From positions 5,185 to 69,184 of the forward strand of contig DATFIZ010000036.1 in NCBI GenBank assembly GCA_035269575.1: a stretch of 64,000 nucleotides of DNA. Reading direction: 5' to 3'. A program made the translations under genes and the position numbers. This document shows, one piece after another, positions 16,783 to 21,000 of this stretch (positions within the stretch are counted from its first letter, which is position 1; the number at the start of each line of letters is the position of its first letter). A model generated the notes under the pieces. The model searched no databases. It worked only from the letters and a program-made list of their open reading frames with translations, and was not told the DNA's origin. The DNA is from Bacteroidales bacterium (GTDB lineage Bacteria; Bacteroidota; Bacteroidia; Bacteroidales; UBA12077).

Positions 16783-17247
16783 CTAAAGATTTCTCCTTCT
16801 TCCTTTGCGGGAATTAGCCCAAAATGGCTTTAAATTATCATCTCTAAGTTTATATTGATTATTTCCATAAGAGAAATTTTTTGCAACATAATGATTTTCC
16901 GGCAAGCCATCTGCATGATATACATTCAAATCAATATCTGTTCCGGATACTAGTTCATCAACCATTTCAGATACAAGTTTAGCTGGTCCCAAATGAATAT
17001 TTGATACTTGTTCCTTATCATTAATATTATGTTTAATAAGCAAGTGGGTACCCGTTGAATACTTCCCAGTAGTCTCTGTGCAAGGTTCTTCAATTACTTT
17101 AACCAAGCTTCCGGATATTTCATTCACTTGAGTTTGTATACCCTCTTGCGCAATTCCACGGTTATCCCCTACTCCTTTTTGAGCAAAACTAAATACTGTT
17201 AAACTCGCTAAAACTAATGTAGTTAATAAAATTTTTGTCCAATTCAT
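16783..17247 (-). CDS. Secreted protein of unknown function
   Basis: 154-aa ORF with signal peptide MNWTKILLTTLVLASLTVFSFAQ. The central HLGP...LRDDNLKPFW pattern recalls a small periplasmic family sometimes labelled MamS/MamX-like; that is an unverified memory. The C-terminus is basic (RKGRRRNL). Confidence 0.6.
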   Translation of the reverse strand: MNWTKILLTTLVLASLTVFSFAQKGVGDNRGIAQEGIQTQVNEISGSLVKVIEEPCTETTGKYSTGTHLLIKHNINDKEQVSNIHLGPAKLVSEMVDELVSGTDIDLNVYHADGLPENHYVAKNFSYGNNQYKLRDDNLKPFWANSRKGRRRNL

Positions 17248-17372
17248 ATCAATTCCTTTTTTAATTAGTTATTATATGTTTATATCTATATACTTTAATA
17301 TATGTGACACCATATGTTTTAATTTATTACACAAAAAATATTGCATCGATTCTGAAACCTTGATTTTATTTA

Positions 17373-17656
17373 TCATTGAACGATTTCTTATTTCAGGGGC
17401 TTTGCCCCGGACCCCACATACTTTCTTGTCTTGAAACAAGAAAGTAAGCAAAGAAATTCAAGGCTGCGCCCGCCTCACTCGAAAAACTACGCGATGTGAG
17501 CTAAAAAATCTAAACTTGCACTTCCCTACGGTCAGTGGTTGCCTTCGGCGAGCTCGCACAAAACGCTCGGTTCGAACAACAGATTTTTTTTAACGCTCAC
17601 TGTGCTTGTTTTTCGGCTCGCCGGACAAGGCCAATCCGAAAACGAATCGTCAATCA
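17373..17656. other. GC-rich imperfect palindromic element (candidate structured RNA or MITE-like insertion)
   Basis: The outer arms pair: 17373-17410 (tcattgaacgatttcttatttcaggggctttgccccgg) with 17621-17656 (ccggacaaggccaatccgaaaacgaatcgtcaatca). The middle arms pair: 17481-17511 with 17581-17614. An 11-bp hairpin sits at 17419-17446. The apical region holds the perfect palindromes GCGAGCTCGC (17548-17557) and GTTCGAAC (17570-17577). Composition is visibly GC-richer than the flanks. Confidence 0.6.
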
Positions 17657-17778
17657 TTTTTTTATCGGACAATAATGAAAAAATATTTAAAAAAACAGAT
17701 TGAAGTTGATAACAAATAAAGCTTCTTCTTTTGTTTCGGTATTCTTTTCAATAATTTTATGACAAAATACCATTTGAC

Positions 17779-20700
17779 ATGAAATTTATTGCCGATTTAC
17801 ATATCCACTCCCATTTTTCAATGGCTACCAGCAAAAAGCTGACCCCCGAACATCTTGACTATTGGGCTAAGCTAAAAGGAATTAAAGTTGTCGGAACGGG
17901 GGATTTCTCTCATCCGGGATGGACTGCAGAATTGAAAGAAAAAATTGAACCGGCAGAACCGGGTTTATTTAAGCTGAAAGATGAATTTAAAATCAAAAGT
18001 CCGGTTCCGGAGAGTAACACGAATGCACCACGCTTTTTGTTAAGTGCCGAAATAAGCAATATTTACAAGAAAAACGGGAAAGTACGTAAAATACATAATG
18101 TAATTCTGGCTCCCAATTTTGAGGTGGTAGATAAAATTCAGCAGAAGCTTAGCCACATGAATTTCAACATTACCTCAGACGGACGTCCGATTCTTGGGCT
18201 AGATGCAAAACATCTGTTAGAAATGTGCCTGGAAATCTCGGATAAATTTTTTTTTATTCCGGCACATATCTGGACGCCCTGGTTTTCTGCATTAGGTTCC
18301 AAATCAGGATTTAACAGTATTGAAGAATGTTTCGAGGACTTGTCGAAACATATTTATGCGTTGGAGACAGGACTTTCAACCGACCCGGCATTAAACTGGA
18401 TGTGTAGTTTTCTCGATCGCTATACGTTAATTTCCAATTCCGATGCCCATTCACCCGAAAAATTAGGCCGAAATGCCAATCTTTTCGATACAGACGTTAA
18501 CTATTATTCAATAACGGAGGCTCTTAAAACCAGTGATGAAAGGTTTTCTGGAACCTTTGACATGTTCCCGCAGGAAGGGAAATATCATTACGACGGACAC
18601 CGGAAATGCAAGGTCTGCTGGGATCCGGTTCAAACCATGAAACATCATAGCATTTGTCCTGTTTGTGGCAAAAAGGTTACGGTAGGTGTTGTAAATCGCA
18701 TTGTAGAGTTATCTGACAGGGTAAATATTGAAGAGCGTCCAAACCGGAAACCTTTTTACTCGATTATCCCCCTTTCTGAAATTTTAGCGGAGATAGAAGG
18801 TGTTGGAGAAAAATCACAAAAAGTAAAAAAACAGTATGAGCAGCTCATCGCCAAAGCGGGTTCAGAATTCAATATTTTACATTTCTTACCGGTTGAACAA
18901 CTAAAAGAAATGGGTGGAGAAGTATTAAGTGAAGCTATCCAAAGAATGCGAAACCATCAAATCATCATCAAAGAAGGATTTGACGGAGAATATGGTGAGA
19001 TAAAAGTTTTCCATCCCGACGAATCAAAAATTTTTAAAGACAAATCGGCTTTGTTCGAAACAACAAATTTACCGGAGATACCTCAACGTAAACTGCTCAA
19101 TTTCGATCTGCAACAATTCCAAAAGTTAAAAGCTATAAACAAATCTTCTGATATAGCTGCAGAACCGGAAACTATGTATATAACAAAACAAGAAGGGTTA
19201 TTACAAGGCTTAAACCCTGAACAGGCTAAGGCGGTAAAACATGACAAAGGGCCGGCTATTATACTGGCAGGCCCAGGCACAGGAAAAACAAATGTCTTGA
19301 CACGAAGAATTGCTTATCTGGTAAAGGAAAAACAGATAAAACCTGAAAACATTTTAGCTGTAACGTTTACCAACCAGGCAGCCGAAGAGATGCTTTCCCG
19401 TACCCAAAAACTATTAGAGCAAAAGATGGATTTGGAGAAGCTCCATATCTCAACATTCCATGCCCTGGGTTATTCAATACTAAACGACTATTACCGGGGA
19501 AAAAATCAAAACAGCATCCATATTATCAACGACGAGGATAAATTTTTTATGCTACAATACCTTTTCCCTGAAAAAAAGAAAACAGAACTGAAACACTGGA
19601 AACAAAAAATTACAGAAATTAAGCAAAAAGGTTTATTCCCTGATGATATTGAACATGAAACGACACGCACCCTGTTCGAACAATATTCGGCAGAGCTGCA
19701 AAAAAACCATCTGTTTGATTTGGACGATATGATTTATGAGCCTCTGCTAATTTTACGTAAAGATGAAATGCTTCTGCAAAAACTACGGCAACGGTTTCAA
19801 TGGATAATGATTGATGAATATCAGGACATTAACGATGCACAATACCAACTTATTAAATTATTATCTACAAATGAAAACCAGCATATTACGGTAATTGGTG
19901 ATCCCAACCAGGCTATTTACGGTTTTCGCGGTTCAAACTCCAAATACATCAGCCGGTTTATTGAAGATTTCCCTAAAGCAGCAATTTACAAACTTAACCT
20001 GAGTTACCGATGTACGAAAAACATATTAAAAGCTTCGGGCAATATTTTAAAGGAAGATAATTTTTTACAAGGATTAGACGATGGTTTACAGATAAAAGTA
20101 TCGACCCAACAAACCGATAAAAGTGAAGCTGAATATATTGCGCGCGAAATAGAAAGCTTATCCGGCGGATTGCGCTTTTTCTCTATGGATAGCAATGTTT
20201 CGAACGGAGAAAAAGACACCGAAATTGAAAGTTTATCGGATTTTGCCATATTGTGCCGCACCAAAGCTCAAATGGCGGCCATTGAAAAAGCATTGCATGA
20301 CCACAGCATTCCATGCCAAAAGATTAATGAAGATGAATTTTTAAAACACCGCATCACACGAGTACTGATAAACCTGTTAAAATTCAGCGGTGAACCGGAA
20401 AACCTGTTTCTGCGGAATAAAATTACAAGTCAGCTAAATATCAACCCCATATTACTGGATAAAATTCACAACCAATCCAACGATTTGCAATTAAATGAAT
20501 ACCTAAATTTTTTGTGGACAGAATTTATAGTAAATAAAACCGATGAAGACCAAAGGATTTTTGACAAATTTAAACACCTGGCTGCTAAATACAGGAATGA
20601 ACCGGAGAACTTTATTAAACATATTACATTAGGTCAGCCGGCAGATTTGTACCAACCGGAAATTGAGAAGGTAAGTTTAATGACTATTCATGCAGCAAAA

Positions 20701-21000
20701 GGACTGGAGTTTACATGTGTTTTTATTGCCGGATGCGAAAACGGGTTAATTCCCTACTCTCTTTTTAAAGAACAAAAAACTGATAACGACGAAGAAAAGC
20801 GATTGCTTTATGTGGGCATGACCCGGGCCAAAACAATGCTTTATTTAACGCATGCCAAAAAGCGTTTTCTTAAAGGCCGTGAGTTACAACTGCCTAAAAG
20901 CCCCTTCCTGGGTCTTATCGAAAAACAGCTTACCGAGCAAACCAAAAGCGATTACAGGAAAACAGATAAAAATCACGGGCAATTAAGTTTGTTTGGTTAA
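17779..21000 (+). CDS. Fusion protein: Endonuclease-Q-like PHP nuclease plus zinc finger (N-terminal, about aa 1-415) and UvrD/PcrA-type SF1 helicase (about aa 475-1073)
   Basis: N-terminal part: ADLHIHSHFSMATS, GTGDFSHPGW, NSDAHSPEKLG, EGKYHYDGHRKCKVCWDPVQTMKHHSICPVCGKKV, GFDGEYGEI. C-terminal part: LNPEQAKAV, AGPGTGKT, TFTNQAAEEM, MIDEYQD, GDPNQAIYGFRGS, SYRC, TIHAAKGLEF, LLYVGMTRAK. Confidence 0.9.
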   Translation: MKFIADLHIHSHFSMATSKKLTPEHLDYWAKLKGIKVVGTGDFSHPGWTAELKEKIEPAEPGLFKLKDEFKIKSPVPESNTNAPRFLLSAEISNIYKKNGKVRKIHNVILAPNFEVVDKIQQKLSHMNFNITSDGRPILGLDAKHLLEMCLEISDKFFFIPAHIWTPWFSALGSKSGFNSIEECFEDLSKHIYALETGLSTDPALNWMCSFLDRYTLISNSDAHSPEKLGRNANLFDTDVNYYSITEALKTSDERFSGTFDMFPQEGKYHYDGHRKCKVCWDPVQTMKHHSICPVCGKKVTVGVVNRIVELSDRVNIEERPNRKPFYSIIPLSEILAEIEGVGEKSQKVKKQYEQLIAKAGSEFNILHFLPVEQLKEMGGEVLSEAIQRMRNHQIIIKEGFDGEYGEIKVFHPDESKIFKDKSALFETTNLPEIPQRKLLNFDLQQFQKLKAINKSSDIAAEPETMYITKQEGLLQGLNPEQAKAVKHDKGPAIILAGPGTGKTNVLTRRIAYLVKEKQIKPENILAVTFTNQAAEEMLSRTQKLLEQKMDLEKLHISTFHALGYSILNDYYRGKNQNSIHIINDEDKFFMLQYLFPEKKKTELKHWKQKITEIKQKGLFPDDIEHETTRTLFEQYSAELQKNHLFDLDDMIYEPLLILRKDEMLLQKLRQRFQWIMIDEYQDINDAQYQLIKLLSTNENQHITVIGDPNQAIYGFRGSNSKYISRFIEDFPKAAIYKLNLSYRCTKNILKASGNILKEDNFLQGLDDGLQIKVSTQQTDKSEAEYIAREIESLSGGLRFFSMDSNVSNGEKDTEIESLSDFAILCRTKAQMAAIEKALHDHSIPCQKINEDEFLKHRITRVLINLLKFSGEPENLFLRNKITSQLNINPILLDKIHNQSNDLQLNEYLNFLWTEFIVNKTDEDQRIFDKFKHLAAKYRNEPENFIKHITLGQPADLYQPEIEKVSLMTIHAAKGLEFTCVFIAGCENGLIPYSLFKEQKTDNDEEKRLLYVGMTRAKTMLYLTHAKKRFLKGRELQLPKSPFLGLIEKQLTEQTKSDYRKTDKNHGQLSLFG

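Follow-up and report, generated by a model that had tools for sequence, protein, structure and literature searches.

The 64,000-nt stretch of Bacteroidales contig DATFIZ010000036.1 analyzed here (the window) contains, at positions 17373 to 17656, a GC-rich block that folds back on itself, located in the 531-nt gap between an open reading frame (ORF) of 154 amino acids (aa) and a gene encoding an EndoQ-like/UvrD helicase fusion protein (EndoQ-UvrD). We consider it probable that this block is a copy, ~340 bp in length, of a non-autonomous, multicopy, noncoding repeat that is distributed across phyla, that spreads in a manner dependent on its fold, and that has no role in regulating the repair gene. 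Judged from orthologous spacers, the block is an insertion in this lineage between the 154-aa gene and the EndoQ-UvrD gene.

Insertion site, extent, and close copies

The block is missing from orthologous gaps at three levels of helicase divergence:

L006: helicase 90% identical, gap of 212 nt, block absent
L007/L008: helicase 86% identical, gap of 70 nt, block absent and the 154-aa gene missing as well
L011: helicase 75% identical, gap of 280 nt, block absent

Five metagenome contigs of the same species carry the block and are 98.6 to 100% identical across the gap. Three of these five end in or beside the element (L004, L005, and L002, at window positions 17290, 17362, and 17405, respectively), which fits an assembly break at a multicopy or fold-back repeat.

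The search for further copies, which had been proposed in a preliminary description of this DNA made from the letters alone, recovered diverged copies in unrelated contexts, such that the element is short, noncoding, and present in several settings, as a miniature inverted-repeat transposable element (MITE) would be. A subfamily-specific pattern matched 18 metagenome stretches. L154 is 93% identical over window positions 17334 to 17689 (BLAST), and L150/L153 are 83% identical over 17393 to 17678; the flanks are unrelated in both cases, 32 nt of the apex (17537 to 17568) are missing from L150/L153, and L153 holds an additional solo right-arm fragment. L141, L144, and L158 constitute a more distant clade, with ~84% identity over approximately the first 100 nt of the core (window 17412 to 17516) and a much shorter apex without the 17537-to-17568 sequence, and in the other stretches, homology is confined to the first 45 to 50 nt. 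In L144 (11705 to 11867) and L158 (1213 to 1372), a second, diverged element lies tail-to-tail with the first, and the two are separated by a small hairpin flanked on its two sides by an A run and a T run, respectively, which resembles a bidirectional terminator. Within the window itself, neither BLAST nor the covariance model (described below) found a second copy. Because HKL09786.1 (encoded next to the L150 copy) and HKL07551.1 (the window helicase) belong to a common accession series, both labelled “MAG TPA: Bacteroidales bacterium,” the data suggest that the L150 and window copies reside in a single metagenome-assembled genome (MAG) with at least two copies.

Homology with these independent copies extends the unit beyond the 17373-to-17656 block that was first delimited, and the alignment of three copies (window, L154, and L150) gives a common right end at ~17677. 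The parts of the window element are as follows:

17340–17677: whole inserted element, ~340 bp, by homology with L154 and L150/L153 and absence from L006 and L011; left limit 17334 or 17340
17340–17350: outermost left inverted repeat ATTGCATCGAT, pairing with 17664–17673; conserved in L154
17664–17673: outermost right inverted repeat ATCGGACAAT; conserved in the window, L154, and L150
17373–17386: left outer arm of the preliminary description, TCATTGAACGATTT, pairing with 17643–17656 in minimum-free-energy folds; left side common to L154 only
17643–17663: right outer arm of the preliminary description, CGAATCGTCAATCA, then T7; conserved in L154 and L150 (T run of 8 to 9 there)
17396–17418: hp0, the GC hairpin GGGGC-TTT-GCCCC, then GGACCCCACA; 5′ of the module, in the window, L154, and L150
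17417–17429, + strand: S1a, pyrimidine arm of the signature hairpin, CATACTTTCTTGT; helix 1 is 97.7% paired over 24 family members
17430–17435, + strand: loop X, CTTGAA, complementary to X′ (17457–17462)
17436–17448, + strand: S1b, purine arm ACAAGAAAGTAAG, of the form A2-G-A3
17449–17456, + strand: L, second purine tract CAAAGAAA, of the form A3-G-A3; mirror of S1b and predicted third strand (− strand equivalent, UUUCUUUG)
17457–17462, + strand: X′, TTCAAG, pseudoknot partner of loop X
17463–17633, + strand: long imperfect hairpin, helices P2 to P6, closing directly after X′ (RNAalifold and covariance model)
17512–17518, + strand: left half of the apical motif, AAACTTG (family consensus, AAACTCG)
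17571–17582, + strand: right half of the apical motif, TTCGAACAACAG (family consensus, CTCAAACAG; L154 has TTCAAACAGCAG)
17537–17568: copy-specific apical insertion of 32 nt, absent from L150/L153; it holds GCGAGCTCGC and the 5′ half of an alternative pairing discussed below

Much of the preliminary description of the block is borne out by the sequence. Windows of 100 nt across 17400 to 17650 have 46 to 49% GC, versus 18 to 27% for the remaining gap, although the block is not GC richer than everything around it, as had been claimed, given that the neighboring genes reach 44 to 51%. ORFs overlapping the block are all ≤59 aa, and none explains it. The RNA fold of 17365 to 17665 has a free energy of −84 kcal/mol on the + strand (z = −3.9) and of −100.5 kcal/mol on the − strand (z = −3.8), and on both strands it is more stable than all 100 dinucleotide shuffles. 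In the minimum-free-energy fold, the outer arms are joined; the sequence also has the middle arms (AAAAAATCT/AGATTTTTT, TGTGAGC../..GCTCA, and CGAAAAAC/GTTTTTCG) and the perfect 11-bp hairpin (17419 to 17429/17436 to 17446); what had been viewed as a left-arm insertion carrying this hairpin is actually the most conserved part of the element, the signature module of a cross-phylum family. The features that were stressed at the apex exist in the window copy but are not conserved: the palindrome GCGAGCTCGC lies within the 32-nt stretch missing from L150, the palindrome GTTCGAAC differs by one base from the ..TTCAAACAG motif conserved in the family, and the alternative pairing of GGCGAGC with GCTCGCC has its 5′ half inside the same copy-specific stretch. 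Rfam 15 returned no match for the whole window at gathering thresholds and, for the region itself at E values up to 10, only chance-level matches.

The preliminary description also offered a cis-regulatory leader or small RNA (sRNA) for the repair gene 120 nt downstream. The sole conserved sequence upstream of the EndoQ-UvrD ATG, as seen in relatives without the element (including L006 and L011), is 17700 to 17778. The published Bacteroidetes promoter consensus is TTTG/TAnnTTTG at −33/−7, and this conserved stretch holds TTTG and TAATTTTA at a consensus-like spacing, which we take to be a candidate promoter of the EndoQ-UvrD gene:

17730–17759, + strand: putative EndoQ-UvrD promoter, outside the element; −33 TTTG at 17730–17733 and −7 TAATTTTA at 17752–17759

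Since these candidate −33/−7 boxes sit in the conserved 17700-to-17778 sequence, the block is upstream of the probable promoter. That the element acts as a leader, riboswitch, attenuator, or antisense sRNA for EndoQ-UvrD or the divergent 154-aa gene would agree with the proximity of both genes, the alternative pairings, and the T run at 17657 to 17663. Such a role is nevertheless unsupported, because the orthologous spacers are without the block and the conserved promoter-like sequence is downstream of it; moreover, the same element occurs beside unrelated genes in any orientation, the proposed switch helix is partly in the copy-specific insertion, and there is no Rfam match. We find this role barely credible and regard the element as most likely irrelevant to the EndoQ-UvrD gene. 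For its host, the window copy would most likely be neutral cargo that separates two divergent genes and adds a strong fold-back structure. At the level of the locus, the outcome is thus ordinary: a repeat insertion, which removes a tempting leader or riboswitch annotation and explains why metagenome contigs break here.

The two genes bordering the gap are as follows:

16783–17247, − strand: 154-aa ORF, divergent from the helicase gene; no Pfam match
17779–21000, + strand: EndoQ-like/UvrD helicase gene, 1,073 aa, with Pfam UvrD domains (and PF27218 in the precomputed table)

The former is a variable small gene beside the insertion site, being present in L006 and L011 (155 aa) and missing in L007/L008; its L011 counterpart has a weak MamS_MamX match. 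The fusion of an EndoQ-like region (PF27218, MJ0043_C) with a UvrD helicase is widespread (8,000 candidates at E ≤ 1e-50), with the source labels among the matches listed including Bacteroidota, Armatimonadetes, Elusimicrobia, Cloacimonadota, Aminicenantes, and others. One homologue is 1,451 aa in length and has an additional match to PF14528, which we take to be an intein/LAGLIDADG-type family.

Conserved architecture and the triplex signal

All family members share a common layout of S1, L, X′, and the long hairpin P2 to P6 with its apical motif, usually preceded by hp0 or a tRNA 3′ end. S1 is a 13-bp hairpin, CTTACTTTCTTT(K)–loop X–(M)AAAGAAAGTAAG, after which comes tract L; the five to six bases right after tract L are complementary to the S1 loop. 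The apex of the long hairpin is AAACTCG–(small hairpin)–CTCAAACAG, and the stem is variable in sequence but conserved in pairing. The conserved apical motif is itself a mirror repeat (AAACTC and CTCAAA), which, on the complementary strand, would give tandem G·A/A·G and then U·G and U·U pairs, an internal loop with the look of an RNA or a protein-binding site.

Covariation supports both the loop pairing and the long hairpin. Among 90 unique modules, the mean longest complementary run between loop X and X′ is 4.44, versus 3.16 ± 0.09 when partners are shuffled between loci (~15 standard deviations), and double changes preserve the pairing: CTTGAA/TTCAAG in the window copy corresponds to CTTGAC/GTCAAG and CTTGAT/ATCAAG in sister copies. 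The RNAalifold consensus of six copies contains the long hairpin with eight compensatory pairs, and a covariance model (R1) built from these six matches the window at 17417 to 17635 with 193.9 bits; its full-length members include Ralstonia, Noviherbaspirillum, Undibacterium, Rikenellaceae, Haemophilus, and others. In a 24-member alignment spanning several phyla, 94.6% of cells are paired (versus 63.9% when shuffled and ~50% with the 3′ partners shifted by one to three columns), and both sides have changed in 43 of 47 pairs, figures that are somewhat inflated because the alignment was fitted to the model. The window copy retains an intact module and pseudoknot pair and most of its helices.

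Tract L follows a rule of its own. If the S1 purine arm is written as A(m)-G-A(n) and L as A(p)-G-A(q), then p = n in every asymmetric class, and q usually equals m. These classes, namely, (2,3), (2,4), (2,5), (3,4), (4,2), (4,3), and (5,3), are represented by >90 instances from many taxa; the exceptions amount to three instances in two loci and are chance-like. The window copy, with an arm of A2-G-A3 and an L of A3-G-A3, conforms. Because L always mirrors the purine arm and never copies it directly, which amounts to three-way covariation, an intrastrand triplex is implied and Watson-Crick pairing of L with the pyrimidine arm (i.e., an alternative hairpin) is excluded in all asymmetric variants. 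Natural three-way covariation for a bacterial triple helix, with at least seven length variants obeying the triplex code, is uncommon except in a few riboswitches and in RNAs of eukaryotes or viruses.

The chemistry of such a triplex would differ between strands. On the + strand, L would run antiparallel to the purine arm and form an A·A-T/G·G-C purine-motif (class II) triplex, which is limited to DNA, whereas on the complementary strand, the pyrimidine tract would lie parallel to the purine arm in a U·A-U/C+·G-C (class IV) triplex, open to RNA or DNA (the class names are those of Holder et al. 2015, according to whom purine-motif triplexes do not form in RNA but pyrimidine-motif triplexes do; PMC4666352). 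Such a triplex is geometrically consistent: the third strand meets X′ at the loop end of the hairpin, which is where X is found.

If the molecule is RNA, triplex chemistry thus favors the complementary strand. In Clostridium (L035), the module is located between a tRNA and an intrinsic terminator and is very probably transcribed on the + strand. An uninformative scan for sigma-70 promoters and terminators identified no promoter on either strand.

Distribution and rival explanations

The family came to light when a BLAST search of plasmids matched 17407 to 17456 to intergenic DNA of Ralstonia megaplasmids. Scanning one genome per species with the pattern TACTTTCTT-N(8–14)-AAGAAAGTAAGCAAAGAAA, which has 28 specified bases, matched at least 120 stretches from many phyla. 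Carriers among the matches listed include Burkholderia, Paraburkholderia, Ralstonia, Variovorax, Neisseria, Haemophilus, Pseudomonas, and Lysobacter; Clostridium, Selenomonadaceae, Oscillospiraceae, Lentisphaerae, Patescibacteria, Nitrospirales, and Desulfuromonas; and, from the Bacteroidota, Rikenellaceae, Saccharicrinis, and Saprospiraceae. Copy numbers can be high: one Burkholderia genome has at least 16 matches, some Burkholderiales have dozens of copies per genome, a single megaplasmid of Ralstonia wenshanensis has copies in 18 places, and one Ilyobacter (Fusobacteriota) replicon has them in six. Plasmid matches are restricted to chromid-type megaplasmids of Ralstonia, Variovorax, and Comamonas plus an Ilyobacter replicon, and there was no match in 5,426 complete Escherichia coli genomes or in phage records.

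Viral contigs searched with four 22- to 24-mers yielded one match, confined to the hp0 hairpin, and a looser hairpin pattern yielded seven that are chance-like. The single match is the 22-mer GGGGCTTTGCCCCGGACCCCAC (window 17397 to 17418), which is identical in the 4,067-nt contig IMGVR_UViG_3300027688_000654 (L012), within ~250 nt of varied GC-rich hairpins (300 to 560) upstream of a 646-aa ORF; no triplex module occurs in its vicinity. Perhaps hp0 is a separate unit of wide distribution; in most other lineages, an analogous GC hairpin or a tRNA 3′ end precedes the module.

Rfam searches of 16 family loci returned tRNAs only, and a search of a Variovorax copy returned nothing. We found no description of the family in Rfam or in open-access literature text, where neither the module sequence nor the topic of MITEs in Burkholderia led to a relevant paper, and the family is unusual and apparently unnamed. 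Being abundant, absent from Rfam, and a source of spurious “LTFFAAAKKVS...” ORFs, the family warrants a model, which would improve annotation.

Copies behave like insertions. They are intergenic, with several located 4 to 9 nt past a stop codon, and their orientation with respect to neighboring genes is random. Presence varies at orthologous sites, as between the window and L006/L011 and between Ralstonia L013 and L159. In Ralstonia CQPS-1, the spacer between the cobaltochelatase stop codon and the cbiE start contains a ~740-bp mosaic (a microsatellite plus two inverted copies), whereas the same spacer in Ralstonia SL2312 is only 22 nt long and represents an empty site. This cobalamin-gene spacer is an insertion hot spot: Ralstonia megaplasmids CP022785.1 and CP144383.1 (H76 and H77) have an IS5-family insertion there. 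Burkholderia and Paraburkholderia copies are often inverted pairs ~490 nt apart, and pairs may be flanked by the microsatellites (TGGTT)n/(AACCA)n and (TTGGGTTGGTA)n, as in Burkholderia (L023, 5540 to 5605 and 6270 to 6330) and Ralstonia (L013, 1345 to 1440), where pair and microsatellites together make a ~700-bp mosaic that is an almost perfect giant palindrome.

The CCA of a tRNA gene directly adjoins the start of three copies (tRNA-Ser, tRNA-Tyr, and tRNA-Gly; L116, 266 to 760, and L035, 3760 to 4300), and in L116, a 24-nt copy of the tRNA 3′ end stands before each of three tandem units, a pattern reminiscent of repeated site-specific integration at a tRNA gene. We rejected tRNA linkage as a general rule: only these three copies abut a tRNA, with none among the Bacteroidota loci or in the window.

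The MITE-like element that the preliminary description listed among its candidates comes closest to this evidence, in that copies are diverged, randomly oriented, and polymorphic in presence. The element has, however, neither an established target-site duplication nor, as far as the neighborhoods of ~140 copies show, terminal repeats matching an autonomous insertion sequence (IS), its terminal inverted repeats being imperfect and 10 to 14 nt long. Under the repeat reading that we favor, the module would, once one strand is unpaired, form a triple helix within that strand; the loop pseudoknot would cap this helix and stack on the long hairpin. Selection would preserve this fold because the element's spread depends on it, with two possible roles for the fold: to be recognized by an enzyme that is supplied in trans and works on a single-stranded intermediate, as its substrate, or to protect the element's transcript as a cap.

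A bolder version, which we put forward tentatively and consider rather doubtful, is that the family makes up a class of bacterial nucleic acid, mobile or selfish, that spans phyla and is as yet undescribed, and whose core is an encoded, functional triple helix (a paperclip of Y-Y-R or Y-R-R order) locked by the loop pseudoknot and set on the long hairpin. If true, this could be the first ENE-like triplex protecting 3′ ends of bacterial transcripts, or else a structure-specific site at which a single-stranded DNA intermediate is recognized or primed; spread through a host-universal enzyme, as opposed to a dedicated transposase, would explain near-identical modules from Patescibacteria to Burkholderia. 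Should the triplex be needed for spread or RNA stability, the family would offer a simple, testable system for the roles of triplexes in bacterial cells.

Several observations weigh against the mobile-repeat interpretation or its triplex core. All-against-all clustering of 1,628 ORFs near ~140 copies disclosed no recurrent transposase, integrase, or other protein family within 2.5 kb; the largest clusters are spurious ORFs reading through the repeat (...LTFFAAAKKVSKES...), and the others are generic families. Many copies, including that in the window, are single modules as opposed to two inverted ends. AAAAAAT occurs on both sides of the window copy (17333 to 17339 and 17678 to 17684), but there is nothing comparable at L154, and the flanks of the Ralstonia site are strongly diverged. 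A selfish DNA repeat would not usually keep ~38 nt exactly conserved between phyla, and such conservation would better fit a host-beneficial RNA. As to strand, G-U pairs outnumber A-C mismatches by 41:21 on the + orientation, in an alignment biased towards G-U, and the complementary strand folds with the lower free energy in 22 of 23 members, a composition effect given the equal z-scores. The putative triplex is seen through covariation alone, and the variant modules were drawn from loci selected with the canonical pattern. Finally, the 5-bp hairpin base (CTTAC/GTAAG) cannot coexist with a full triplex, which would call for two alternating states or a partial triplex.

Spurious ORFs that read through the repeat are also conspicuous in many high-GC loci (such as L114, 1880 to 3589, and L054, 4093 to 5838), where long repeat ORFs with the peptides ALTFFAAAKKVSKESG or YFLCFAKESKQRK mimic a protein family.

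The element could instead be a stable noncoding RNA gene or a part of one, in which a triplex pseudoknot sequesters an A-rich end and blocks exonucleases, the long hairpin and apical loop carry the function, and the copies are paralogous RNA genes or RNA-level cargo. The strong covariation in all helices and the pseudoknot suits such an RNA, as do the complementary-strand triples, which are of the RNA-compatible U·A-U/C+·G-C type (PMC4666352). On that strand, the purine tract is 3′ terminal in a unit with a sharp boundary, and an RNA would end in ...AAAGAAAGUAAG. T runs follow the window, L154, and L150 copies, and the L035 module, lying between tRNA and terminator, is the one very probably transcribed. 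Yet that layout implies the + strand, where an RNA triplex should not form; there is neither an identified promoter on either strand nor an Rfam family, orientation to genes is random, many copies are truncated, nested, or in inverted pairs, and Burkholderia genomes hold dozens. We judge a stable RNA unlikely.

A DNA repeat of the REP/BIME/BoxC type, structural or used by the host, is less probable still in our view; as duplex or extruded DNA, it would be bound by host proteins such as gyrase, IHF, or nucleoid proteins or would stall polymerases, and it would spread by recombination and not by a transposition system of its own. Mosaics with other small repeats and microsatellites in Burkholderia and Ralstonia, intergenic positions often right past stop codons, and the Y-R-R order shared with E. 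coli BoxC/TMECO, for which no transposase is known and which have been associated with instability of the genome (PMC4666352), are all in line with such a repeat. Against this, covariation of the long hairpin, pseudoknot, and triplex points to a folded single strand and not to a protein site in duplex DNA, host-specific proteins poorly explain the identity of modules across phyla, and the complete E. coli genomes are without a match. A protein-bound cruciform, the third candidate of the preliminary description, is conceivable as well.

That the window copy is a dead, decaying remnant is very improbable, and this idea is compatible with the repeat reading and no true alternative to it. The copy does depart from the family consensus (CA for CT at the hairpin base, AAACTTG for AAACTCG, and TTCGAACAACAG for CTCAAACAG), its P2 helix is imperfect, and it has the 32-nt apical insertion; on the other side stand its near identity in all five same-species contigs and its intact module, pseudoknot pair, and most helices.

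Other candidates were rejected for want of an Rfam match or of defining features: pistol, hatchet, and HDV-like ribozymes, STAXI, Y RNA, and 6S RNA, as well as retron msr/msd, integron attC, IS200/IS605 ends, and omega RNA.

Comparison with known systems

H-type triplex pseudoknots (telomerase RNA, SAM-II, and preQ1-II) resemble the module in having a loop paired with a flanking strand and a connecting strand forming base triples in a groove. The family differs from them in being repeated, in its much longer stem, and in having no association with a ligand or gene and no Rfam match. In a 2026 review of triplexes, the prokaryotic RNA triplexes listed are riboswitches and group II introns only.

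ENE-type triple-helix stability elements, known from MALAT1, PAN RNA, and plant and fungal transposon RNAs (PMC13541005, PMC7583470), offer a functional analogy only. On the complementary strand, a U-rich strand could lay U·A-U/C+·G-C triples on a U-A duplex, with the A-rich strand at the 3′ edge of the unit; as with the transposon RNAs, the carrier is repeated and probably mobile, and tRNA or tRNA-like hairpins abut the unit. Unlike ENEs, the family is bacterial and has a paperclip topology (Y-Y-R with a loop pseudoknot) in place of a U-rich internal loop clamping a tail: the U-rich tracts of the − strand are joined by GCUUAC, with no stem-loop, and the A tract is in the same hairpin.

MRSC-65-2, a “mobile/repeat sequence candidate” from the Breaker laboratory, consists, according to its description, of one long stem in which UYCCGG is repeated, and its authors suggest that it is a selfish element whose structure may be important as DNA (PMC11109978). 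Like the family, it has a long stem with strong covariation, occurs in diverse phyla, and reaches dozens of copies in a genome. In the window element, CCGGAC is found two times (GUCCGG on the − strand) and TYCCGG on neither strand, and the description of MRSC-65-2 mentions no triplex module; judged by that description, the two are unlikely to be the same.

Like MITEs and REPINs, the element is small, noncoding, multicopy, and intergenic, varies in presence between relatives, and has imperfect terminal inverted repeats and a long fold-back. Unlike these, it has no established target-site duplication, has no parental IS or RAYT that we found, and is most conserved in an internal, asymmetric module and not at its termini; furthermore, its conservation of ~38 nt extends over several phyla, in contrast to the usual lineage specificity of MITE and REP families. 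REP/BIME/REPIN sequences have a palindromic unit of 20 to 40 nt, a head tetranucleotide, and a RAYT, in contrast to the unit of 180 to 340 nt with an asymmetric module seen here. No RAYT-like gene recurs beside family copies, although no genome-wide search for RAYTs was made.

The nearest described kind is the PIT/BoxC/TMECO intrastrand-triplex repeats of E. coli and other Proteobacteria (Holder et al. 2015, citing Hoyne et al. 2000; PMC4666352). These have G/C-rich blocks (CCCTCNCCC..GGGNGAGGG), as opposed to the A/T-rich window module (CTTTCTTT..AAAGAAAG..AAAGAAA), and the module does not fit the TMECO pattern CCCTCNCCC N3–6 GGGNGAGGG N3 GGGNGAGGG; the text of PMC4666352 contains no AAAGAAA or TTTCTTT motif. 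The first loop of family modules is 4 to 14 nt, partly beyond the 1 to 6 nt used by ITxF. Also unlike PIT/BoxC/TMECO, which have a narrower host range, the family occurs across phyla, yet not in E. coli, and its module has a covarying loop pseudoknot and is fused to a covarying hairpin of 150 to 200 nt with an apical motif. What the two have in common are three pyrimidine-purine-purine blocks on one strand separated by short loops, with a class II triplex on one strand and a pyrimidine-motif triplex on the other: in the family, S1a, S1b, and L follow in this order, the third block obeys the triplex rule, and the spacer is 6 nt. Both are, moreover, multicopy, intergenic, of no fixed orientation, without a transposase, and variable in copy number between close strains.

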